Positions 25,324 to 56,877 of a DNA stretch of 64,000 nucleotides are shown here, in pieces (position 1 is the stretch's first letter; every line of letters begins with the position of its first letter). The notes below the pieces were generated by a model, which was given only the letters and a program-made list of their open reading frames with translations, did not search any database and was not told the origin of the DNA. Location of the stretch: the NCBI RefSeq assembly GCF_000026545.1, contig NC_011601.1; one strand, given 5' to 3'. The translations under genes were made by a program, and so were the position numbers. The DNA is from Escherichia coli O127:H6 str. E2348/69 (GTDB lineage: Bacteria; Pseudomonadota; Gammaproteobacteria; Enterobacterales; Enterobacteriaceae).

Positions 25324-26517
25324 GTGTTTCAAAAAGTTGACGCCTACGCTGGCGACCCGATTCTTACGCTTATGGAGCGTTTTAAAGAAGATCCCCGCAG
25401 CGACAAAGTGAATTTAAGTATCGGTCTGTACTACAACGAAGACGGAATTATTCCACAACTGAAAGCCGTGGCGGATGCGGAAGCGCGCCTGAATGCGCAG
25501 CCTCATGGTGCTTCGCTTTATTTACCGATGGAAGGGCTTAACAGCTATCGCCATGCCATTGCGCCGCTGCTGTTTGGTGCGGACCATCCGGTACTGCAAC
25601 AACAGCGCGTAGCAACCATTCAAACCCTTGGCGGCTCAGGGGCATTGAAAGTGGGCGCAGATTTCCTGAAACGCTACTTCCCGGAATCAGGCGTCTGGGT
25701 CAGCGATCCTACCTGGGAAAACCACGTAGCAATATTCGCCGGGGCTGGATTCGAAGTGAGCACTTACCCCTGGTATGACGAAGCGACTAACGGCGTGCGC
25801 TTTAATGACCTGTTGGCGACGCTGAAAACATTACCTGCCCGCAGTATTGTGTTGCTGCATCCATGTTGCCACAACCCAACGGGTGCCGATCTCACTAATG
25901 ACCAGTGGGATTCCGTGATTGAAATTCTCAAAGCCCGTGAGCTTATCCCATTTCTTGATATTGCCTATCAAGGATTTGGTGCCGGTATGGAAGAGGATGC
26001 CTACGCCATTCGCGCCATTGCCAGCGCTGGATTACCCGCTCTGGTGAGCAATTCGTTCTCGAAAATTTTCTCCCTTTACGGCGAGCGCGTCGGCGGACTT
26101 TCTGTTCTGTGTGAAGATGCCGAAGCCGCAGGCCGCGTACTGGGGCAATTGAAAGCAACCGTTCGCCGCAACTACTCCAGCCCGCCGAATTTTGGTGCGC
26201 AGGTGGTGGCTGCGGTGCTGAATGACGAGGCATTGAAAGCCAGCTGGCTGGCGGAAGTAGAAGAGATGCGAACTCGCATTCTGGCAATGCGTCAGGAACT
26301 GGTGAAGGTATTGAGCACAGAGATGCCAGAGCGCAATTTCGATTATCTGCTTAATCAGCGCGGCATGTTCAGTTATACCGGTTTAAGAACCGCCCAGGTT
26401 GACCGACTACGTGAAGAATTTGGTGTCTATCTCATCGCCAGCGGTCGCATGTGTGTCGCCGGGCTTAACGCGCAAAATGTGCATCGCGTGGCAAAGGCGT
26501 TTGCTGCGGTGATGTGA
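25324..26517 (+). CDS. tyrB: aromatic-amino-acid aminotransferase TyrB (397 aa, GTG start)
   Basis: Translation from (V)[13 protein letters not shown] matches TyrB. Confidence 0.9.
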
Positions 26518-26527
26518 TTTTAATCAA

Positions 26528-26547
26528 CAGGCGGATCTCTCCGCCTG
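26528..26547 (+). terminator. hairpin after tyrB (CAGGCGGATCTCTCCGCCTG)
   Basis: Perfect 8-bp stem read directly; weak T tract. Confidence 0.45.
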
Positions 26548-26647
26548 TTCCTGACTCCAGCCATCCCCTACTATTCTGTCCCTTTTTTCGCCCACTTTTA
26601 CATCATCTATTTTCTATAAGTTTTTGAAAATTAGTGTTTTTAACTGT

Positions 26648-26663
26648 TGGTACGGATTGTGCA
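26648..26663 (+). promoter_or_regulatory. sigma-54 (-24/-12) promoter-like element upstream of the island E1 gene
   Basis: TGGTACGGATTGTGCA: TGG..AC at -24 and TGCA at -12 with canonical spacing, about 35 bp upstream of the E1 ATG. Confidence 0.5.
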
Positions 26664-26698
26664 GTAATGCGGCTGTCTATGACCATCAGGAGAAAAAC

Positions 26699-29443
26699 AT
26701 GGAGAACATGACCTCGCCCGGCACGCTGCTTAGTGGAGATAACGCGACCTGGCTTGAAGAGTACTACCAGACCTGGTTGCGTACGCCGGAAAAACTCCCG
26801 GAAGACTGGCGGCGTTTTTTTCTTTCACCTGAACTGACTGTCCAAAGCGTATCCGGTGATAACAACGTCAGCGGTGCGACGTTAAAAAAACAGGCTGCGG
26901 TAATACAACTGATCAATGCCTGGCGCACGCAGGGGCATCTGCGCGCAAAGCTTGATCCACTTGGTTTGAATCCCCCGGCTGACGTTCCCTCCCTCCAGCC
27001 TGGTTTTTGGGGATTAAGCGAAGAAGACTTGTTGCAGGAATTTAGCGTCACCTTTGGCGCACACACCACGCAAATGCCACTTAAGCAACTGCTTAACCTG
27101 CTAGAGCAAGCCTGGGCCGGTAGCCAGGCTTATGAACTTGCTCATCTGGAAAATCGTGAAGAAATCAACTGGTTGTTATCACGGATTGAGAGCAGCAATG
27201 CGCCACAAGCAGATGTACAAACCTGTATTGCTCGTTTTGAAAAACTGATGGCGGCAGAGACGTTAGAGCGTTATCTGCATACCCGTTATGTTGGGCAGAA
27301 ACGGTTTTCTCTGGAAGGGGGCGAAAGTGCAATCCCGGCGCTCGATACGCTGACAAAACGCCTGCGTGCGCAAGGTGTGGAGGAAATGGTCATTGGCATG
27401 GCGCACCGGGGAAGACTTAATGTTCTGGTTAATCTGTTGAATAAAGACCCGGCACAGCTTTTTGCTGAGTTTGAAGGCAAGCAGACGATCGGCAGTGGTT
27501 CAGGCGATGTGAAATACCACATGGGGTATTCCAGCAATCTGGAAACACCTGCCGGTTCGCTGCATGTGGCGCTGGCGTATAACCCCTCACATCTGGAGAT
27601 CGTGAATCCGGTGGTGCTGGGCCAGGTGCGAGCCAGGCAGGAACGCCGTGGTGAGGATGGTCAGGCAAAAGTGGTGGGCGTACTTATTCATGGGGATTCC
27701 GCGTTGGGCGGCCTCGGCGTCAACCAAACCACGTTTAACTTATCGCAGACTCAGGGCTACGGCACTGGCGGTACGCTACATCTGGTGATTAACAATCAGA
27801 TTGGCTTCACCACTTCCCGCTTGCAGGATATGCGTTCTTCACGGTACTGCACCGATATTGCCAAAATGGTAGCGGCCCCAATTATCCACGTTAATGGCGA
27901 TGACGTTGACGCTGTTTGCCAGGTAATGGAACTGGCGTGCGAATGGCGAGACACCTTCCGGCGCGACATCATCATCGATATTTGCTGCTTCCGTAAGCAC
28001 GGACACAACGAAAGCGATGAGCCACGTCTTACCCAGCCACAAATGTATCAGGCAGTGGATGCTCACCCTGGTACGCTCGCCCGTTATGGTGAATCTCTTG
28101 CCCGCCGCGGCCTGTTAACTCAGGCGCAACAAGATGAGATGACGGCACGCTATCGCGACTGGCTGGATAGCTGCCAGAAACGTGAACCGCAGCCTCTCAA
28201 ACCTGCAATTCACTCTTTTAGCGCTAACTGGTATGGGTTGACCAACCCTCACTGGAGCGCCCCGGTATCTACGGCATTGCCTCGGCAAAAGCTGGCAGCG
28301 TATGGTGAAATCATTTCTACACTGCCACCCGATGTGGTCGCACATCCTACCATTAAACGGCAACTGGCGTTACGCCAGGATATGGCCGCAGGTACTCAGC
28401 CAATAGACTGGGGAATGGCTGAAATGCTGGCCTATGCATCGCTTGTGGATGCGGGTGTTGGTGTGCGTCTTTCTGGTGAAGACTCAGGGCGTGGCACGTT
28501 CAGTCATCGCCATGCAGTGGTACATCATCAAACTGAAGCCCGTCGTTATCTGCCGTTACAGCATATCCGCGCTGGTCAGGCATCTTTCGATGTTTATGAT
28601 TCGGTGCTTAATGAAGAAGCGCTCTTAGCCTTTGAATATGGCTATTCAACGTCTGCGCCTCAGCAACTGGTTATTTGGGAAGCGCAGTTTGGTGACTTTG
28701 CCAACGGCGCTCAGGTTGCTATTGACCAGTTTATCTCGTCTGGCGAAACCAAGTGGGATCGCTATAGCGGTTTAACCATTCTTCTGCCGCATGGCTATGA
28801 CGGACAAGGGCCGGAGCACTCTTCTGCGCGTCCTGAGCGCTGGCTGCAACTGTGCGCAGAAAACAACATGCAGGTGGTGATGCCCAGTGAGTCAGCACAA
28901 ATGTTCCATTTGCTGCGCGGTCAGGCATTACGCCCAATGCGCAAACCGTTAGTGATAATGATGAGTAAGCGTTTACTTCGGTTTAAAGGCGCGATGAGCG
29001 AGCTTTCTGAATTTACTGATGGCGCTTATAAACCGGTAATCACCGATCCGCAATTGCATCAGCCCCAGAAAGTTAAGCGCGTTATTTTGTGTAGCGGCCA
29101 GGTCTATTACGACGTACTGGAAGCCCGTAAGCAGCGTGAGTGTGAAGATGAGGTAGCGATTGTTCGCCTGGAGCAACTCTACCCGTTCCCGGTCGCAGAA
29201 CTGAATGATGTTCTGGCGAGTTGGCCGAACTGCTGCGAATGGATTTGGTTGCAGGAAGAGCCAGAAAACCAGGGCGCGTGGCGGCAGATTCGTCATGAGC
29301 TGGCGGCACTGAAAATTAACACTCCTTACTGGCAGTATGCAGGCCGCCCGGCAGCGGCAGCTCCGGCGACGGGGTATGGGCGTGTACATAAACAACAAAT
29401 CGACGAATTTCTTGCTGCTGCGTTTGCAGATATTCAGCCATGA
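26699..29443 (+). CDS. 2-oxoglutarate dehydrogenase E1 component paralogue (SucA-like, 914 aa)
   Basis: Collinear similarity to SucA along the whole length (e.g. MAHRGRLNVLVN, GDVKYHMG, EAQFGDFANGAQV, LPHGYDGQGPEHSSAR); start moved to ATG 26699 downstream of the promoter motif and preceded by AGGAG. Confidence 0.9.
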   Translation: MENMTSPGTLLSGDNATWLEEYYQTWLRTPEKLPEDWRRFFLSPELTVQSVSGDNNVSGATLKKQAAVIQLINAWRTQGHLRAKLDPLGLNPPADVPSLQPGFWGLSEEDLLQEFSVTFGAHTTQMPLKQLLNLLEQAWAGSQAYELAHLENREEINWLLSRIESSNAPQADVQTCIARFEKLMAAETLERYLHTRYVGQKRFSLEGGESAIPALDTLTKRLRAQGVEEMVIGMAHRGRLNVLVNLLNKDPAQLFAEFEGKQTIGSGSGDVKYHMGYSSNLETPAGSLHVALAYNPSHLEIVNPVVLGQVRARQERRGEDGQAKVVGVLIHGDSALGGLGVNQTTFNLSQTQGYGTGGTLHLVINNQIGFTTSRLQDMRSSRYCTDIAKMVAAPIIHVNGDDVDAVCQVMELACEWRDTFRRDIIIDICCFRKHGHNESDEPRLTQPQMYQAVDAHPGTLARYGESLARRGLLTQAQQDEMTARYRDWLDSCQKREPQPLKPAIHSFSANWYGLTNPHWSAPVSTALPRQKLAAYGEIISTLPPDVVAHPTIKRQLALRQDMAAGTQPIDWGMAEMLAYASLVDAGVGVRLSGEDSGRGTFSHRHAVVHHQTEARRYLPLQHIRAGQASFDVYDSVLNEEALLAFEYGYSTSAPQQLVIWEAQFGDFANGAQVAIDQFISSGETKWDRYSGLTILLPHGYDGQGPEHSSARPERWLQLCAENNMQVVMPSESAQMFHLLRGQALRPMRKPLVIMMSKRLLRFKGAMSELSEFTDGAYKPVITDPQLHQPQKVKRVILCSGQVYYDVLEARKQRECEDEVAIVRLEQLYPFPVAELNDVLASWPNCCEWIWLQEEPENQGAWRQIRHELAALKINTPYWQYAGRPAAAAPATGYGRVHKQQIDEFLAAAFADIQP

Positions 29444-34136: not shown

Positions 34137-34154
34137 TCCATAAATGAATATCAA

Positions 34155-34178
34155 GGGAGCATATCGCTCCCTTTTTTT
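34155..34178 (+). terminator. rho-independent terminator after the SucD-like gene
   Basis: GGGAGC-ATATC-GCTCCC stem-loop followed by T7. Confidence 0.7.
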
Positions 34179-34291
34179 ATCTGTGTGGTAAGGGAATCAT
34201 CTTTTAATAACTGTGCGGAAAACCGCGCATAAAATAAAAAGGATAAATAGCTAACTCATTAAATAACAAAGCGTTATTAAAAAATTAAAGA

Positions 34292-34307
34292 TGGCATAGC
34301 TCCTGCA
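34292..34307 (+). promoter_or_regulatory. second sigma-54 (-24/-12) promoter-like element, upstream of the transporter gene
   Basis: TGGCATAGCTCCTGCA: TGGCA at -24 and TGCA at -12 with canonical spacing, about 40 bp upstream of ATG 34348. Confidence 0.5.
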
Positions 34308-34347
34308 ATAGCCAGGCAGGTTTTTTATTTTTCACAATGAGGTGAAT

Positions 34348-35847
34348 ATGTCATCAATATCCCATGGCGCACCACAAAAGCGTCGAATTATCCCTAATCC
34401 CGGCCTGTGGTTGGCGATCATTGCCGGAATTATTATTACCCTTCTGCCACTGGGCGATACCTTGCCCGTCGCCGGACAAAATATGATCGCCATTCTGGTG
34501 TTTGCCATTATTGTCTGGATCAGCGAAGCGATGGATTACACCGCCAGTGCAATTGTTATTTCCGCACTGATTATCTTTATGGTTGGTTTTGCCCCGGATA
34601 TGAATCACCCGGACACGATCCTTGGCACCGCGAAAGCGCTGAAAATGACTCTGTCGGGTTTTTCTAATTCTGCTCTGGCGCTGGTGGCAGCAGCAATGTT
34701 TATCGCGGCGGCAATGACCATTACCGGGCTGGATAAACGCATTGCGCTGTTTACTATGTCGAAAATAGGTGCCAGCAGCCGCAGCATTATTATCGGTGCC
34801 ATTGTGGTGACCATCGTCCTGAGCCTGGTCGTACCCAGTGCCACTGCCCGTACGGCTTGCGTGGTGCCGATTATGATGGGGGTCATTGCGGCATTTAAGG
34901 TGGATAAACATTCACGTTTAGCGGCGTCAATGATGATTGTTATCGCCCAGGCGACCAGTATCTGGAAAGTTGGTATTCAAACTTCGGCGGCGCAAAACCT
35001 GCTTTCTATCGGTTTTATCAATAAAACTTTCGGCGCCGGGCATTCTGTCAGCTGGCTTGACTGGCTGTTAGCGGGCGCGCCCTGGAGCCTCACCATGTCG
35101 GTGATCCTCTATTTCCTCGCACGTAAATTGTTGCCGCCAGAAACGGAAGCTGTTGAAGGGGGGAGCGAGGCCATTAAAAAAGCACTCGCAGAGTTAGGGC
35201 CAACCACCGGTAAAGAAAAACGCTTGATCGGTATTTCGCTGTTGTTACTGCTCTTTTGGTCTACTGGCGGAAAATTGCACAGTATTGATACCACCTCTGT
35301 CACCCTTGCCGGACTGGCGATTATGTTGCTGCCAGGCATCGGTGTAATGAGCTGGAAAGAGGTCGAAAAACGTGTGCAGTGGGGCACGTTGCTTATGTTT
35401 GGTATTGGTATCAGCCTGGGGTCCACGTTGCTTGATACACAGGCAGCTTCATGGATGGCGAACTATGTGGTGAAAGGTTTTGGTCTCGATGGCTTGCCAT
35501 CATTAGCCATCTTCGCGATTCTCGCCGCTTTCTTGATAATCATTCACCTGGGGTTTGCCAGTGCCACTGCGCTAACTGCCGCATTGCTGCCCATCCTGAT
35601 TAGCCTGTTAAGCAGTCTGCCGCCAGAACTCGGCGTTAACCCGGTCGGCATGACCATTCTGCTCGCCTTCAGTGTCAGTTTTGGCTTCATCCTGCCGATT
35701 AACGCGCCACAAAATATGGTGTGTATGGGTACGGATACCTTCACGCCACGCCAGTTTACCCGTGTGGGACTGTACCTGACGGTGATCGGCTACCTGTTGT
35801 TGCTACTGTTTGCCGCCACCTGGTGGAAAATTTTAGGTCTAATGTGA
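34348..35847 (+). CDS. DASS/CitT-family dicarboxylate (anion) transporter (about 499 aa)
   Basis: Polytopic membrane protein with two-repeat architecture typical of the divalent anion:Na+ symporter / CitT family; start at ATG 34348 after RBS GAGGTG. Confidence 0.8.
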   Translation: MSSISHGAPQKRRIIPNPGLWLAIIAGIIITLLPLGDTLPVAGQNMIAILVFAIIVWISEAMDYTASAIVISALIIFMVGFAPDMNHPDTILGTAKALKMTLSGFSNSALALVAAAMFIAAAMTITGLDKRIALFTMSKIGASSRSIIIGAIVVTIVLSLVVPSATARTACVVPIMMGVIAAFKVDKHSRLAASMMIVIAQATSIWKVGIQTSAAQNLLSIGFINKTFGAGHSVSWLDWLLAGAPWSLTMSVILYFLARKLLPPETEAVEGGSEAIKKALAELGPTTGKEKRLIGISLLLLLFWSTGGKLHSIDTTSVTLAGLAIMLLPGIGVMSWKEVEKRVQWGTLLMFGIGISLGSTLLDTQAASWMANYVVKGFGLDGLPSLAIFAILAAFLIIIHLGFASATALTAALLPILISLLSSLPPELGVNPVGMTILLAFSVSFGFILPINAPQNMVCMGTDTFTPRQFTRVGLYLTVIGYLLLLLFAATWWKILGLM

Positions 35848-35858
35848 GGAAACCAACG

Positions 35859-36932
35859 ATGTCATTACAAATTGCTGTTGAAAAAGTGCGTTGGTTAGCT
35901 GCCGGGCTGCTGGAACTTAATGGCTGTGATGCCGATATCGCTCAGGATGTGGCGGAACATATGATTGAAGCGGAACGTTATGGTTTTGCCAGCCACGGCG
36001 TCACGCTGCTACCGAAATATCTGGAAAATATCGCTCGTGGCGATGTAACCGCGAATGCCCGCCCGGAATGCTTAACAAGTGAAGGTAATTTACAACGTTT
36101 TCATGCCCACAATGGCTTTGGTCAACACGCCGGAAAAGTGGCGGTAAATGCTGCCATCGAACAAACAAAACACCGCGGTTTTTGCCTGTTAACGTTGTGC
36201 CATGCGCATCATTTAGGGCGTATGGGGCATTACGGGCAAATGGTTGCTGATCAAGGCCTGGCGATGCTGGCCATGAGTAACGTCACCGGGCGTCCGGCAC
36301 TGGTCGCCCCGTGGGGCGGTGCGGAACCGCGTATGACCACTAACCCTTTCTGCTTTGCCTGGCCGTTCAGTGATGGGCGTCCGCCGATTCTGGTTGATTT
36401 TGCCACCAGTAGCATGGCGCTAAATAAAGCACGGGTAATGTCGTCCACCGGGAAGCAGGCCGCGCCGGGACAATTGATCGATGCACAGGGGAATCCAAGC
36501 AATGATCCTGGGGTGTTATTCAGCAATCCTCCAGGGGCGTTACTGCCATTTGGTGAGCATAAAGGATTTGGCCTGGCACTGATGATTGAAATGATGGCGG
36601 GGATCTTATCTGGTGGTGACACGATCGCCGAAGATCATCAGACGGATGGATCTGCGCATAATCATCTTTTTGCGTTGATTATCGATCCTGATCAATTCAC
36701 CGATCTGGCAGGGGAGAAAGGGCAGTTCTTTGCGGATTATCTGTTAGCTACGCAGCCTCAACCTGGCGGCAATCCGGTGATTTACCCCGGTATGCCAGAA
36801 GCTGCCAACCGGGAACGCAATGCGAAGATGATTACGATCCCGGTATCATTCTGGTCCTGGGTAGTTGAACATTACGCCCGCAAAGGTATCGATTTGGGGT
36901 TACATCCTCAGGAATCAGCATTAGCTGGATGA
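35859..36932 (+). CDS. Ldh_2-family (malate / L-lactate / sulfolactate type) NAD(P)-dependent 2-hydroxyacid dehydrogenase (357 aa)
   Basis: Family-typical segments (GxxSHG region GFASHG, EHKGFGLAL); start placed at ATG 35859 after RBS GAGGAAA, rejecting the upstream extension that overlaps the transporter. Confidence 0.8.
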   Translation: MSLQIAVEKVRWLAAGLLELNGCDADIAQDVAEHMIEAERYGFASHGVTLLPKYLENIARGDVTANARPECLTSEGNLQRFHAHNGFGQHAGKVAVNAAIEQTKHRGFCLLTLCHAHHLGRMGHYGQMVADQGLAMLAMSNVTGRPALVAPWGGAEPRMTTNPFCFAWPFSDGRPPILVDFATSSMALNKARVMSSTGKQAAPGQLIDAQGNPSNDPGVLFSNPPGALLPFGEHKGFGLALMIEMMAGILSGGDTIAEDHQTDGSAHNHLFALIIDPDQFTDLAGEKGQFFADYLLATQPQPGGNPVIYPGMPEAANRERNAKMITIPVSFWSWVVEHYARKGIDLGLHPQESALAG

Positions 36933-38279
36933 TTCTGGTCGATAAACTTGCGGTTGAATCTGATGTTTGTTGAGTTTGTCATATAAAGTCTTGCGCGGCA
37001 GCTGTAATAGCCGCGCTGTCAAACTGACCTGGCCTTCCGTTTGTCGCAGCATATCTTCGATTAACTTTTTCTCGAAAGCATCAATGCAGGCGGTAAGGCC
37101 ACTCTCTTCTTGCTGAGTCATTGGTACTGGCTGGTGGTGGGTCAGTAAACCGAGAACAAAACGCTCTGCATTGTGTTTAAGTTCACGTACATTGCCAGGC
37201 CAACTTTGTGACTGCAACCAGGCCAGTAACATGGGAGAAATATCAGGCAGAGGACGATTATATTTTTGTGCCGCCTGACTGGCGAACCAGTAAAACAGTT
37301 CAGGGATATCTTCTCGTCGTTGGCGTAGAGGTGGAATATTCAGGCTAACCACATTCAGACGATAATAGAGATCGAGACGAAACAGATGTTCTTCGCTGCG
37401 ACGCAGTAAATCTTCCTTGGTCGCTGCAATAACACGGCAATTCACCGGAATTAATTGATTGGCACCTAATCGTTCAATGGTTCTTTCCTGCAATACACGT
37501 AGCAGTTTTACCTGCATTCCTGATGGCATTCCCTCTATTTCATCGAGAAATAACGTACCACCATTTGCATGTTCAATTTTTCCAATACGCTTTTTAACCG
37601 CACCGGTAAATGCGCCCGCCTCATGACCAAATATTTCGCTTTCAAACAACGTTTCTGGTAAGCCTGCACAGTTTAAGGCAACAAACTGCCCCTGACGGCG
37701 GGTACTCCAGTGATGCAGCATTCTGGCGACGACTTCTTTACCACAACCTGTTTCACCATAAATAAGGACATCGGCACCGGTATCTGCGACATTAAGGATC
37801 ATTTTACGCAGTTGTTGCATCTGCGGACTACGACCAATCAGCACCGGGCCATTTTCCTGTTGCAGATTCGCCAGTAATTGCTGATTTTCTAAAACCAATC
37901 GCCGTTTTTCTACCGCTCTGGCAATAATACTCAATAATTTATCTGAGCTACTTGGTTTCTCAATGAAATCGAATGCACCATTACGCATGGCATCCACCGC
38001 CATTTCCACGTCACCGTGTCCGGTAATTAAAATAACCGGAATTTTGCTATCCATTTCGTTGATGTAACTGAGGAGCTCTAGTCCTGATATTCCAGGTAAC
38101 CTGACATCGGTCAGTATAATAATGTTGGCCTGACTTTGAATAAGGGGAATACTGTGTTCTGCATCGCAACAGGAAATAACACGATAACCAGCCAGCGTGA
38201 GCGTTTGTTCACAGGCAAAACGTACATCGTCACTATCCTCAATATAAACTATAGTAATTTCACTGGATTTATTATTCAT
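36921..38279 (-). CDS. kguR: sigma-54-dependent two-component response regulator (NtrC/DctD family, 452 aa)
   Basis: Receiver domain with phospho-acceptor Asp (IILTDVRLPG), AAA+ domain with Walker A GETGCGKE and the sigma-54 contact motif GAFTGA, C-terminal Fis-type HTH; gene name from memory of the UPEC KguS/KguR system. Confidence 0.85.
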   Translation of the reverse strand: MNNKSSEITIVYIEDSDDVRFACEQTLTLAGYRVISCCDAEHSIPLIQSQANIIILTDVRLPGISGLELLSYINEMDSKIPVILITGHGDVEMAVDAMRNGAFDFIEKPSSSDKLLSIIARAVEKRRLVLENQQLLANLQQENGPVLIGRSPQMQQLRKMILNVADTGADVLIYGETGCGKEVVARMLHHWSTRRQGQFVALNCAGLPETLFESEIFGHEAGAFTGAVKKRIGKIEHANGGTLFLDEIEGMPSGMQVKLLRVLQERTIERLGANQLIPVNCRVIAATKEDLLRRSEEHLFRLDLYYRLNVVSLNIPPLRQRREDIPELFYWFASQAAQKYNRPLPDISPMLLAWLQSQSWPGNVRELKHNAERFVLGLLTHHQPVPMTQQEESGLTACIDAFEKKLIEDMLRQTEGQVSLTARLLQLPRKTLYDKLNKHQIQPQVYRPESSS

Positions 38280-40092
38280 GTTCTTCTCCCCATTCAGGCC
38301 AGGTTAATGTCATTACTGCGCCGCCTTCAGGATGATTACTGGCGTGGAGTGCGCCGTTCGAATTTCGGACAATTTCGCTGACTATTGCCAGTCCCAACCC
38401 CATTCCTCTACGTTTAGTGGTAAAAAATGGTTCAAATATGCGATCGACAACTTCAGGTGCAAAACCGCCACCGCTGTCTTTAATGGTAATAATAACTTTG
38501 TTATTTGCCTGGCGAATGGCGATATCCAGTCGTTTGTAAGAGCTACCTTCCATAGAATCTAAGGCGTTGCTAATTAAATTACTGAATATCTGTTCAAGAC
38601 CGAGCTCATCGCAATTGACAAATAACGGCATGGATGGGGCTTTTATTCGTCGCTCAATATTATTTTTCTCCATGCTGTGATTAAGTAACGCCACGGCGCT
38701 ATACATCACTTTGATGACATCGGCAGAACCTTTAGGTACGCGATGGCGCGAGGCAAATGCTTTAAGTTCGGAAATGAGCTGCGTCATCCGCTCAATCACT
38801 GAAATAATGTGTTTCAGATTCTGTTCAACCTGCGGATACATCTCTTTTTTTAGCATAGTACGCGCGTTATCAGTAAGTGCGTGAATGGCGGCTAACGGTT
38901 GATTTTGTTCATGGGCAATTTCGGTTGCCATCTGTCCAAGCGCCGCCAGTTTGCTGGACTCTGCCAGTTCACTACGCGTAATTTGTAATACTTGTTCAGC
39001 CTGACTGCGCTCTTTTATCTCCTGTATTAATTTTTGATTGATCAATTCCAGGGCAGATGTACGCTCTTTAACCTGTTTCTCTAATGTTTCATTCGCCAGT
39101 GTTAATAATTGTTGTGCATGAGATCGCATTCTCCAGTATTTAATAAATAACAAAAACAGCAGGTAAATAATTAGCGTAATGACTAACGAAATAGCCCATG
39201 ACCAGTACAGGTTATCTAAGGGGACCATAATTGTCATTTTCCAGTTAAATTCTGGAATGGCTATTTGTTGCGTATAATATTGCGGGAATAAACAGAGTTG
39301 TTCTTTTTTATCTTTCAGGAAAGTAAAATTGCTCACGGTATAACAGGGATAATAATCCGCCGGTAAAAGATTGTCGAGACTATATTGGCGGGTAGATTGT
39401 AGTTTTTGTTTTGCCTGAACAGGTAACGGTTGCAGTGTTCGCATTCGCCATGGCGATTTTGAACTTAAAAATATAATCCCATGTTCATCATTCACGATAA
39501 TATTTTCAGGACCTTCGGCCCATGCTTTTTCAATTTCATTAAGACTTATTTTTACTACTACAACACCGACAATTTTTCCTTTATCTTTTATACTTGTAGA
39601 GAGGAAGAATCCCGGTGTATTCGTAGTGCTACCAATACCGTAAAAGCGTCCATTTAAGCCAGACATGGCGTGTTTATAATAGGGGCGATAGCTATAATTT
39701 TGCCCTACATAGCTGCCGGGGTCCTGCCAGTTGCTAGAAGCGATGGCCTTACCTTGGGTATCCAGAATAAATATTGCTGCGGTTTTGAGTTGAGTATTGA
39801 AATGTGCAATTCGTTGATTGAGTTCGCTGGACATCATATCGTCAGGCGTAATTACCGCCTGACGGATGATATGGTCTGTTGAGAGCATATAGGGTAAAAC
39901 ATAAAATTGCTCGATGGTGGAATATAATGTGGACTTATACATTTCAAGCCGCATTTTATCGGTACCGGACAAGGTATTAAAACGCAAGTGCAAAAAAGCG
40001 ATTGAAACCGCGAGCATGATAAGAAAAAGTGAAATGCTTGTAATGTGAAATCGCCATTTGTTCTTAAATATATAATTCCACGATATTTTCAT
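38272..40092 (-). CDS. kguS: periplasmic-sensing histidine kinase (DctB-like, 606 aa)
   Basis: Two transmembrane segments flanking a large periplasmic domain, H-box ATEIAHEQNQPL, ATP-binding G-boxes; 8-bp overlap with the regulator gene; gene name from memory. Confidence 0.85.
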   Translation of the reverse strand: MKISWNYIFKNKWRFHITSISLFLIMLAVSIAFLHLRFNTLSGTDKMRLEMYKSTLYSTIEQFYVLPYMLSTDHIIRQAVITPDDMMSSELNQRIAHFNTQLKTAAIFILDTQGKAIASSNWQDPGSYVGQNYSYRPYYKHAMSGLNGRFYGIGSTTNTPGFFLSTSIKDKGKIVGVVVVKISLNEIEKAWAEGPENIIVNDEHGIIFLSSKSPWRMRTLQPLPVQAKQKLQSTRQYSLDNLLPADYYPCYTVSNFTFLKDKKEQLCLFPQYYTQQIAIPEFNWKMTIMVPLDNLYWSWAISLVITLIIYLLFLLFIKYWRMRSHAQQLLTLANETLEKQVKERTSALELINQKLIQEIKERSQAEQVLQITRSELAESSKLAALGQMATEIAHEQNQPLAAIHALTDNARTMLKKEMYPQVEQNLKHIISVIERMTQLISELKAFASRHRVPKGSADVIKVMYSAVALLNHSMEKNNIERRIKAPSMPLFVNCDELGLEQIFSNLISNALDSMEGSSYKRLDIAIRQANNKVIITIKDSGGGFAPEVVDRIFEPFFTTKRRGMGLGLAIVSEIVRNSNGALHASNHPEGGAVMTLTWPEWGEEHE

Positions 40093-40272
40093 TCATCATC
40101 CATTGAATGCATTTATATTTATCATCAGTATATTCCCTGAACAATGTTTGCGAGAACCAAAAGAGTGCCATTGTGTGAATGTGTAAGCAGAATAACCGTG
40201 GCAATGTGTGGTTTATCGCACAGGTATTCCAAATGTGATCATGCTCTTTTTATGTGACAAATCCGCAGATAA

Positions 40273-54918: not shown

Positions 54919-56877
54919 TTACGATGGCATCGCGATGGCCTGCTTCTCTTCAAGCAGCTTCTCGACTACGCCAGGATCGGCAAGCGTCGAGGTATCGCCC
55001 AGGTTGCTGGTATCGCCCGCCGCAATTTTGCGCAGAATACGGCGCATAATTTTGCCGGAGCGGGTTTTAGGCAGGGAGTCGGTCCAGTGCAGCACGTCTG
55101 GCGTCGCCAGCGGGCCAATCTCTTTACGCACCCAGTTGCGGACTTCTGCGTACAGTTCTGGTGACGGTTCCTCCCCGTGATTAAGCGTGACGTAGGCGTA
55201 GATCGCCTGACCTTTAATATTGTGCGGAATACCGACCACAGCGGCTTCGGCAATTTTCGGATGCGCCACCAGCGCCGACTCAATCTCTGCCGTCCCCAGG
55301 CGGTGACCGGAGACGTTCAGCACGTCGTCAACGCGCCCGGTGATCCAGTAATAGCCATCTTCATCGCGACGCGCGCCGTCGCCGCTGAAATACATATTTT
55401 TGAAGGTGGAGAAGTAGGTCTGCTCAAAACGTTCGTGATCGCCAAACAGCGTACGCGCCTGACCCGGCCAGGAGTCGGTGATCACCAGACTGCCTTCGGT
55501 GGCCCCCTCCAGCGGGTTACCTTCGTTATCGACCAGCGCTGGTTGCACGCCGAAGAACGGACGTGTTGCCGAACCGGCTTTCAGCTCGGTAGCGCCAGGC
55601 AGTGGCGTGATCATGAAACCGCCAGTTTCGGTCTGCCACCAGGTGTCGACCACCGGGCATTTCTCGTTGCCGATCTTCTTCCAGTACCACTCCCACGCTT
55701 CCGGGTTAATTGGCTCGCCCACGGAACCGAGAATGCGCAGCGACGAACGGTCGGTGCCTTCGATCGCTTTATCGCCTTCCGCCATCAGCGCGCGAATCGC
55801 CGTGGGCGCGGTATAGAGAATATTGACCTGATGCTTGTCCACCACTTGCGCCATACGGGCAGGCGTCGGCCAGTTCGGTACGCCTTCAAACATCAGCGTG
55901 GTCGCGCCGCAGGCCAGCGGGCCATACAGCAAATAACTGTGTCCGGTAACCCAGCCCACATCGGCGGTGCACCAGTAGATGTCGCCCGGATGATAATCAA
56001 AGACATATTTAAAGGTCAGCGCCGCGTACACCAGATAACCGCCGGTAGTGTGCAGCACGCCTTTTGGCTTACCGGTAGAACCGGAGGTATAGAGAATAAA
56101 CAGCGGGTCTTCGGCGTTCATCTCTTCCGCCTGGTGCTGATCGCTCGCTTGCTCAACCAGGTCGTGCCACCACAGGTCGCGCCCTTCCTGCCAGTCAATT
56201 TTCCCGCCAGTACGCTTCAGTACCACCACATGCTCTACGCTGGTGACGTTCGGGTTTTTTAGTGCGTCATCGACGTTTTTCTTCAGTGGAATGCTGCGCC
56301 CGGCACGCACACCTTCGTCGGAAGTGATCACCAACCGTGAGTTGGAATCGATAATGCGTCCGGCAACGGCTTCCGGCGAGAAGCCGCCGAAAATTACCGA
56401 ATGCACCGCGCCAATGCGGGCGCAGGCCAGCATCGCGACCGCGGCTTCCGGCACCATCGGCATATAAATCGCCACCACATCACCTTTTTTAATGCCCAGC
56501 TCGAGCAGGGTATTGGCGAAGCGGCAGACGTCGCGGTGCAGCTCTTTATAGCTGATATGTTTGCTCTGGCTGGCGTCGTCGCCTTCCCAGATGATGGCGG
56601 TACGATCGCCGTTTTCTTGCAGATGGCGGTCAAGGCAGTTTGCCGCCAGATTCAGCGTGCCGTCCTCGTACCATTTAATGGACACATTACCGGGGGCAAA
56701 GGAGGTGTTTTTCACCTTCTGGTACGGTGTGATCCAGTCGAGAATTTTTCCCTGTTCGCCCCAGAAGGTATCTGGTGCGTTAATAGATTGTTGATACATC
56801 GCCTCGTACTGCTGAGGGTTTATCAGGCAACGGTCTGCGATGTTGGCAGGAATGGTGTGTTTGTGAATTTGACTCAT
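54919..56877 (-). CDS. acs: acetyl-CoA synthetase Acs (652 aa)
   Basis: Translation matches Acs; AMP-binding motif [11 protein letters not shown]. Confidence 0.95.

Follow-up and report, generated by a model that had tools for sequence, protein, structure and literature searches.

The 64,000 nucleotides of Escherichia coli O127:H6 str. E2348/69 analysed here (the window; contig NC_011601.1) contain an island between tyrB and aphA that comprises a sucA/sucB/lpdA/sucC/sucD-like operon, genes of the DASS and Ldh_2 families and, on the opposite strand, genes for a regulator and a kinase. This is the c5032-c5041 α-ketoglutarate utilisation (kgu) island of uropathogenic E. coli, which encodes the two-component system KguS/KguR. 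The c5038 orthologue (34348-35847, plus strand) encodes a DASS-family anion symporter, the α-ketoglutarate transporter (Pfam Na_sulph_symp, 2.8e-117; RefSeq annotation; PMC5318444), and is the target gene of the promoter considered below; it is followed in the same orientation by the c5039 orthologue, an Ldh_2-family oxidoreductase gene (35859-36932, plus strand; Pfam Ldh_2, 3.8e-93; annotation). On the minus strand lie kguR (C5040; 36921-38279), coding for a sigma-54-dependent response regulator with Pfam domains REC, Sigma54_activat (1.1e-67) and HTH_8 (4.7e-10) (PMC3694859; PMC8716947), and kguS (38272-40092), coding for its cognate sensor, a dCache-type histidine kinase (Pfam dCache_1, HisKA and HATPase_c; PMC3694859). 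KguR, KguS and the promoter are all intact in the window. Searches of PDB and NCBIfam with KguR indicated membership of the NtrC family only, and no NCBIfam equivalog cut-off was reached.

Among 5426 complete E. coli genomes, 1045 contain the 801-bp stretch that runs from the end of the sucD-like gene across the intergenic region into the start of the transporter gene. In one E. coli record that is labelled a plasmid (NZ_CP048308.1, 26,999 bp), a 100% identical kguR is present along with the neighbouring genes; either a copy of the island has been mobilised or the contig has been mis-assigned. In Pectobacterium zantedeschiae (our locus L021, 1-2213), the whole kgu island lies 3' of genes for a histidine kinase, an NtrC-type regulator and yshB (a glnLG-yshB-like arrangement) rather than between tyrB and aphA, a placement that is consistent with independent horizontal acquisition.

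According to annotation, open reading frames and Pfam, the sequence studied here is located in the 211-bp intergenic region between the sucD-like gene (c5036) and the transporter gene. The c5032-c5036 (sucAB-lpd-sucCD-like) operon is closed by an intrinsic terminator at 34153-34180 on the plus strand (terminator scan; hairpin of -13.4 kcal/mol, z = -5.5, followed by a T run), which divides the two transcription units. Downstream of it is the sigma-54 promoter TGGCATAGCTCCTGCA (34292-34307, plus strand), in which GG at -25/-24 (34293-34294) and GC at -13/-12 (34305-34306) are separated by 12 bp, and in which TGGCA..CTGCA is invariant in eight aligned species. The c5038 transcription start, transferred by homology from 5'-RACE in CFT073, where it is an A located 30 nt before the start codon (PMC5318444), falls at 34318 on the plus strand; this position is an A, 12 nt 3' of the C in the GC element, and the transporter ATG is at 34348.

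The palindrome and the published KguR site

Between the terminator and the promoter, at 34212-34229, lies TGTGCGGAAAACCGCGCA, the inverted repeat TGTGCGG-AAAA-CCGCGCA, which the original prediction had picked out, from the sequence alone, as a candidate binding site (UAS) for an NtrC-family activator of the second sigma-54 promoter of the island. The repeat is present as it was described, a 7-4-7 dyad whose arms are complementary at 6 of 7 positions, the right arm having the reverse complement TGCGCGG and the left arm reading TGTGCGG. Its centre, at 34220.5, precedes the first G in the -24 element (34293) by 72.5 bp, in agreement with the predicted distance of about 75 bp, and is at -97.5 relative to the published start site, which fits a dyad UAS located roughly 80-150 bp upstream of a promoter of the -24 GG/-12 GC type. 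The surroundings are AT-rich, as had also been proposed, with 23% G+C in the flanks compared to 61% in the 18-mer. When the 211-bp intergenic region was subjected to dinucleotide shuffling, 42% of the shuffled sequences held some 7-4-7 inverted repeat with no more than one mismatch, and a G+C-rich inverted repeat with a loop of 3-8 nt was found in 6%. Taken alone, the palindrome is statistically unremarkable for its region, and the case for it therefore rests on recurrence and conservation. Owing to the mismatch in the middle of the arm, the palindrome was missed by a repeat search with an exact 6-nt seed; its presence was established by eye and with a pattern search.

Binding of KguR upstream of c5038 has been studied in strain CFT073. 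Cai et al. (2013) proposed TGTGCG-N8-CGCACA as the motif, and reported that MBP-KguR shifts a c5038 fragment spanning -163 to +32 and that deletion of c5040 (kguR) abolishes induction of c5038-lacZ by α-ketoglutarate (PMC3694859). Cai et al. (2017) labelled KguR inverted repeats, the -24/-12 motif and the transcription start at c5038, found c5038 expression to be RpoN-dependent, and obtained a gel shift of the promoter with RpoN (PMC5318444). In a third study (PMC8716947, 2021), Table 3 gives TGTGCGGAAAACCGCGCACA as the c5038 KguR site and TGTGTGGTTTATCGCACA as the kguS site of CFT073, and MBP-KguR shifted the native probes, in contrast to synthetic ΔBS probes lacking the motif; these gel shifts were done with an MBP fusion at micromolar protein, and the whole motif was deleted in the control probe. 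The same study searched the genome for KguR sites with a loose consensus that allows N5-15 spacing, and proposed 22 sites, including sitA and appA.

The palindrome in the window is identical to nucleotides 1-18 of the CFT073 c5038 site. The two strains share the island, the intergenic region, these 18 nt, the sigma-54 promoter, the position of the start site and the regulator genes; they differ in that E2348/69 is an EPEC strain, whereas the published site comes from uropathogenic CFT073. They also differ in the base that follows the 18-mer (34230), which is T in alleles of the E2348/69 type and C in CFT073 and most other alleles. With T at this position, the published N8 register (TGTGCG-N8-CGCACA) is broken, whereas TGTGCG-N6-CGCGCA and the 7-4-7 18-mer are intact. 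By sequence identity, then, the palindrome is the already published KguR binding site, gel-shift-tested in CFT073. The proposal of an NtrC-family activator site is supported by the neighbouring KguR with its REC, Sigma54_activat and HTH_8 domains, by the CFT073 papers and by the conservation described below, and was a correct call made blind. Since the site had already been published and tested, the finding itself adds nothing new.

Recurrence and conservation of the 18-mer

The best match in the window to a position weight matrix (PWM) of the motif was TGTGTGGTTTATCGCACA, at 40205-40222 (25.2 bits), located 113-130 bp before the start codon (ATG) of kguS; this sequence has been published as the site of KguR autoregulation, and PMC8716947 both lists it and tested it by EMSA. 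The palindrome ranked second (24.6 bits), so that the top two matches in 64 kb are both sites in promoter regions of the island. The third-best match, TGTGCGGAATACCGACCA at 55221-55238 (17.8 bits), is within the coding sequence of acs (acetyl-CoA synthetase), a gene that is unmentioned in PMC8716947, and is probably a chance occurrence. A match at 18272 agrees at 12 of 14 positions by half-site count and scores only 8.8 bits by PWM. Boxes in the same 18-bp frame were found upstream of kguS in E. albertii, three Citrobacter, Klebsiella indica and Pectobacterium, and their gene-adjacent position was confirmed by eye in the first five. A conserved -24/-12 element upstream of kguS was sought and none was found, the TGGCAC-N5-TTGGT of E. 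coli not being kept in Citrobacter or K. indica. Near the kguS box, a conserved TATACT resembling a -10 element is present at 40127-40132 on the minus strand.

To assess conservation at the transporter gene, species-representative genomes were scanned with the transporter protein, yielding 16 loci. With the window added, nine loci have KguS/KguR adjacent, the other eight being those of E. albertii, three Citrobacter, K. indica, Entomohabitans, P. zantedeschiae and Vibrio sp. Y2-5. A contig from a 'Flavobacteriia' MAG was left out of the count; its sequence upstream of the transporter is almost identical to that of the Vibrio locus, with the same gene content and identities. An 18-mer of the form TGTG[CT]GG-N4-right half was present in all nine KguSR loci, covering six genera, with its centre 71.5-74.5 bp upstream of the GG in a TGGCA-N7-TGCA promoter and with diverged spacers, and the palindrome is thus kept in the orthologous islands of E. 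albertii, Citrobacter, K. indica, Entomohabitans, Pectobacterium and Vibrio, where its loss would have counted against the prediction. Neither the 18-mer nor the promoter was found in six distant transporter homologues that lack KguSR (Burkholderiales, Azotobacter and others). Apart from Entomohabitans, every KguSR locus contains two high-scoring 18-mers and no more, the first preceding the transporter gene and the second in most cases preceding kguS; the second 18-mer of Vibrio is ∼700 bp from kguS. Among divergent E. coli alleles, 11 positions vary in the intergenic region, none of them within the 18-mer. The left arm varies at one position only (C/T), and the right half drifts between genera, with 5 to 6 of 7 positions retained. 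The 18-bp spacing is fixed in every enterobacterial and Vibrio site that matches the 18-bp frame, and since all of the matched orthologous sites fit this frame, the N5-15 consensus is probably too permissive.

These observations also bear on other explanations for the palindrome. It might be the operator of another regulator, CRP, FNR or ArcA, all of which influence c5038, with KguR acting elsewhere or indirectly. Anaerobic induction of c5038 does proceed through FNR and ArcA, although ArcA gave no shift of the c5038 promoter and FNR was reported to work via expression of kguSR (PMC5318444). The TGTG...CACA ends resemble CRP half-sites, but they span 18 bp here rather than the 16 bp of the CRP core (TGTGA-N6-TCACA), and the best CRP frame, TGCGG-AAAACC-GCGCA, agrees by direct reading at only 6 of 10 positions. 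Since, in addition, KguR no longer binds once the motif has been deleted (PMC8716947), and the motif tracks KguSR across genomes and equals the box of DctD, the closest characterised relative of KguR, we consider ownership by another regulator very improbable.

Even less probable is the idea that the palindrome works at the RNA level and not as a DNA site, with a hairpin that serves as a secondary terminator or stabilises transcripts reading through from the sucD-like gene. The plus strand does fold into a 7-bp stem of -10.9 kcal/mol (z = -3.7), positioned 32 bp 3' of the operon terminator. However, there is no U run on either strand, and the terminator scan reported the real terminator at 34153-34180 and omitted the palindrome. 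Among eight sequences there were no compensatory changes, four of the seven pairs varied on one side only, and shuffle controls were not exceeded. No Rfam family matched the palindrome, and ahead of kguS the motif is found on either strand in a promoter context that is not transcribed. A left arm that varies at a single position and a right arm that drifts without compensation, together with the lack of a U run and of an Rfam family, are the signature of a protein-binding dyad and not of an RNA stem.

The remaining explanation, that the palindrome is a functionless G+C-rich repeat that arose by chance in an AT-rich spacer, draws on the shuffle frequencies given above and is the least credible of all, given that the 18-mer recurs at the same promoter distance in nine loci of six genera despite diverged flanks, has a second copy upstream of kguS in the window and same-frame boxes at kguS in several orthologous loci, is missing wherever KguSR is missing, and agrees with the published motif-deletion EMSA.

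Spacer elements and the c5032 promoter

The transporter upstream region holds two further elements that may contribute to the enhancer. A candidate weak distal site, TGTGTGGTAAGGGAATCA, is located at 34182-34199, beginning 30 bp upstream of the strong, promoter-proximal box (∼ -126.5); it has a perfect left half-site, TGTGTGG (34182-34188), and a degenerate right half, and as a whole site it scores only 2.5 bits by PWM. In eight of the nine loci, a TGTG[CT]G[GC] half-site is found 30-31 bp upstream of the strong box, forming a conserved block in the alignment; Vibrio instead has an extra half-site downstream of the strong box. The 2013 EMSA probe starts at 34185 and consequently cuts the distal candidate. 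Between the box and the promoter, at 34264-34276 (∼ -48) and in conserved alignment columns, is TAACAAAGCGTTA, an IHF-like sequence that matches WATCAR-N4-TTR with one mismatch. The pattern is in the same position in seven of the nine loci, those of E. coli, E. albertii, the three Citrobacter, Entomohabitans (AATCAATAAATTA) and Pectobacterium, and no match with one mismatch allowed was present in the K. indica and Vibrio loci. We predict from the sequence that the strong box and the distal half-site make up a probable tandem arrangement, with an IHF-like element in the spacer. IHF is unmentioned in PMC5318444, and the KguR papers do not mention the distal half-site, IHF or a relation to DctD, the 2013 and 2021 papers never naming DctD.

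The first sigma-54 promoter of the island, TGGTACGGATTGTGCA (26648-26663, plus strand), is upstream of the c5032 orthologue and is conserved as TTGG[TC]A..N..TGC in four genera. The original prediction had been unable to find a matching palindrome upstream of it, and our examination bears this out, in that only a degenerate 18-mer, TGTCCCTTTTTTCGCCCA at 26577-26594, could be detected. This candidate KguR site (6.7 bits) is the only PWM match of at least 2 bits in 26400-26700; across the 64 kb, 21 positions score 6 bits or more. The distance from its centre to the downstream GG (26649) is 63.5 bp, and the candidate coincides with a block, TGT..CT.TTT.C...CA, that is invariant in E. coli, Citrobacter, K. 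indica and Pectobacterium; it also has TTTTCGCCCA in common with the distal dctA site of Sinorhizobium meliloti. For this comparison, the c5032 upstream regions of other genera were obtained via exact look-ups of the SucB-like protein; a protein search with E1 (c5032) returned only near-identical E. coli entries and no orthologues. A tentative second site, TGTTCCTGACTCCAGCCA at 26546-26563, begins 31 bp upstream of 26577 and has only a conserved block and its spacing of 30-31 bp in its favour; with a PWM score of -5.4, it is a weak candidate. A perfect hairpin with a 10-bp stem, AACAGGCGGA-TCTC-TCCGCCTGTT, is located at 26526-26549, at the left island edge and starting 9 bp past the stop codon of tyrB. 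The hairpin lacks a T run and overlaps the tentative distal site.

A different c5032 KguR site, TGTGTG-N13-CGCGCA at 26450-26474, has been published (PMC3694859; PMC8716947 Table 3). This motif falls within the coding sequence of tyrB, and its entry in Table 3 of PMC8716947 is marked 'CDS, aromatic amino acid transaminase'. The right arm of this motif is not conserved in Citrobacter or K. indica, the motif is off the 18-bp frame (PWM scores of -11.8 and -2.0), and it cannot exist in Pectobacterium, where the island does not adjoin tyrB. The 2013 c5032 probe, at 26427-26730, spans both the published motif and the new candidate sites. On sequence grounds, 26577-26594 appears to be a better candidate for the c5032 enhancer than the published motif, a degenerate pair of sites being the likeliest arrangement.

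Relationship to DctD and the proposed mechanism

The 18-mer closely resembles the box used by DctD in rhizobia. The footprint-derived Rhizobium meliloti DctD site has been reported as TGTGCGgaaatCCGCACA (PMC11077940), and in the dctA upstream region of S. meliloti pSymB (our locus L027, 2585-2635) the DctD site is 84.5 bp upstream of the GG in TGGCACGCATGTTGCT, with a weaker second site, TGTGCATGTTTTCGCCCA, located 33 bp further upstream. The KguR box and the Rhizobium DctD box TGTGCGGAAATCCGCACA (TGTGCGG-N4-CCGCACA) are both 18-bp 7-4-7 dyads and are identical at 16 of 18 positions, and a PWM built only from KguR boxes gave the dctA DctD site 26.6 bits, the top match of that locus. The high-affinity dctA site was assigned by reading the sequence together with the title of the 1992 paper. 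The arrangement of sites is also alike: at both dctA and c5038, a strong proximal site is accompanied by a weaker one about three helical turns upstream (33 bp at dctA, 30 bp for the candidate here), and the boxes are ∼70-85 bp upstream of the -24/-12 promoter of a dicarboxylate transporter gene, the box-promoter distance being 12 bp shorter at c5038 than at dctA. At the protein level, the best match of KguR on pSymB is S. meliloti DctD (50% identity over 445 aa), the recognition helices are near-identical (PRKTLYDKL in KguR, PRKTFYDKL in DctD), and KguS has a dCache sensor like DctB (Pfam; PMC3694859).

The two systems nevertheless differ in signal, which is α-ketoglutarate (C5) for KguR and C4-dicarboxylates for DctD, in transporter family (DASS in kgu, DctA/DAACS in dct) and in gene order, and the kgu island, unlike the DctD system, was horizontally acquired in Enterobacteriaceae. 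From its sequence relationships, we place KguR in the DctD subfamily, and not as a DctD orthologue because inducer and target differ. In Ralstonia wenshanensis (our locus L026, 2436-2484), a homologue with 55% identity adjoins an MFS transporter gene, and tandem boxes 31 bp apart are present. The 18-bp box, in tandem at 31-33 bp, thus precedes transporter genes controlled by members of the DctD subfamily in alpha- and beta-proteobacteria, indicating that the box is a property of the subfamily and is not specific to KguR.

Two other regulators provide useful comparisons. NtrC (NRI) binds dyad sites ∼100-140 bp upstream of the sigma-54 promoter glnAp2, where two sites on one face of the helix promote oligomerisation and looping. 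KguR, like NtrC a REC-AAA+-Fis-type HTH activator, would share this enhancer logic, but NtrC recognises a different sequence, of the TGCACC-N5-GGTGCA type, and the identity between the two proteins is only about 35-37% (our own comparison; PMC3694859). MifS/MifR of Pseudomonas aeruginosa (PMC4482717) is a DctB/DctD-type system that, like KguS/KguR, is specific for α-ketoglutarate and activates a sigma-54-dependent α-ketoglutarate transporter gene. Its transporter is the MFS KgtP-like PA5530, unlike the DASS protein of kgu, and the Ralstonia locus with tandem boxes has MifS/MifR-like architecture.

We conclude, with a probability of roughly 0.93, that the palindrome is a high-affinity UAS (enhancer) for KguR, a DctD-type sigma-54 activator encoded 2.7 kb downstream. 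Studies of CFT073 have established that c5038 expression needs KguR, RpoN and α-ketoglutarate, that KguR binding depends on the motif, and where transcription starts (PMC3694859; PMC5318444; PMC8716947); the present analysis contributes the identity with the published site, the conservation of sequence, register and distance, the co-occurrence with KguSR and the near-identity with the DctD box. In the sequence of events that we propose, α-ketoglutarate would be sensed by KguS, leading to phosphorylation of KguR, and a KguR dimer would occupy the strong dyad, TGTGCGG-N4-CCGCGCA (18 bp, centre at -97.5). This dimer would probably nucleate a higher KguR oligomer, and thereby an active AAA+ ring, jointly with the weak half-site, which is located 30 bp farther upstream and on the same helical face, and bending of the AT-rich spacer, probably at the IHF-like site near -48, would loop the ATPase onto the closed sigma-54 holoenzyme at TGGCA-N7-TGCA. 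ATP hydrolysis would then open the complex and allow transcription of the transporter/oxidoreductase operon. The roles given here to the distal half-site, IHF, oligomer assembly and looping are modelled on the established behaviour of NtrC/DctD-type activators.

A more specific proposal, which we offer tentatively and at slightly less than even odds, is that KguR recognises the classical DctD box, with the 7-4-7 register fixed, within dctA-like tandem enhancers that consist of a strong and a weak site ∼30 bp apart. Were this so, the published TGTGTG-N13-CGCGCA in tyrB would be mis-assigned and the real c5032 enhancer would be the degenerate pair at ∼26546-26594, and KguR would not truly target most of the 22 sites, sitA and appA among them, that the genome-wide search with N5-15 spacing put forward.

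The refinements beyond the published site are incremental. Their added value is modest and consists of the fixed 18-bp register, the relation to the DctD box, the probable tandem layout with an IHF-like site and a better candidate at the first promoter. Knowledge of the exact enhancer is useful for predicting the KguR regulon, and the sharper description of the site would tighten regulon searches and casts doubt on some of the proposed secondary targets. If the tentative proposal holds, DctD and KguR-like regulators could also cross-bind enhancers where both occur, for example in Vibrio. The regulon in question belongs to a system, KguS/KguR, that serves the anaerobic use of host α-ketoglutarate by extra-intestinal and some diarrhoeagenic E. 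coli and adds to fitness in the urinary tract.
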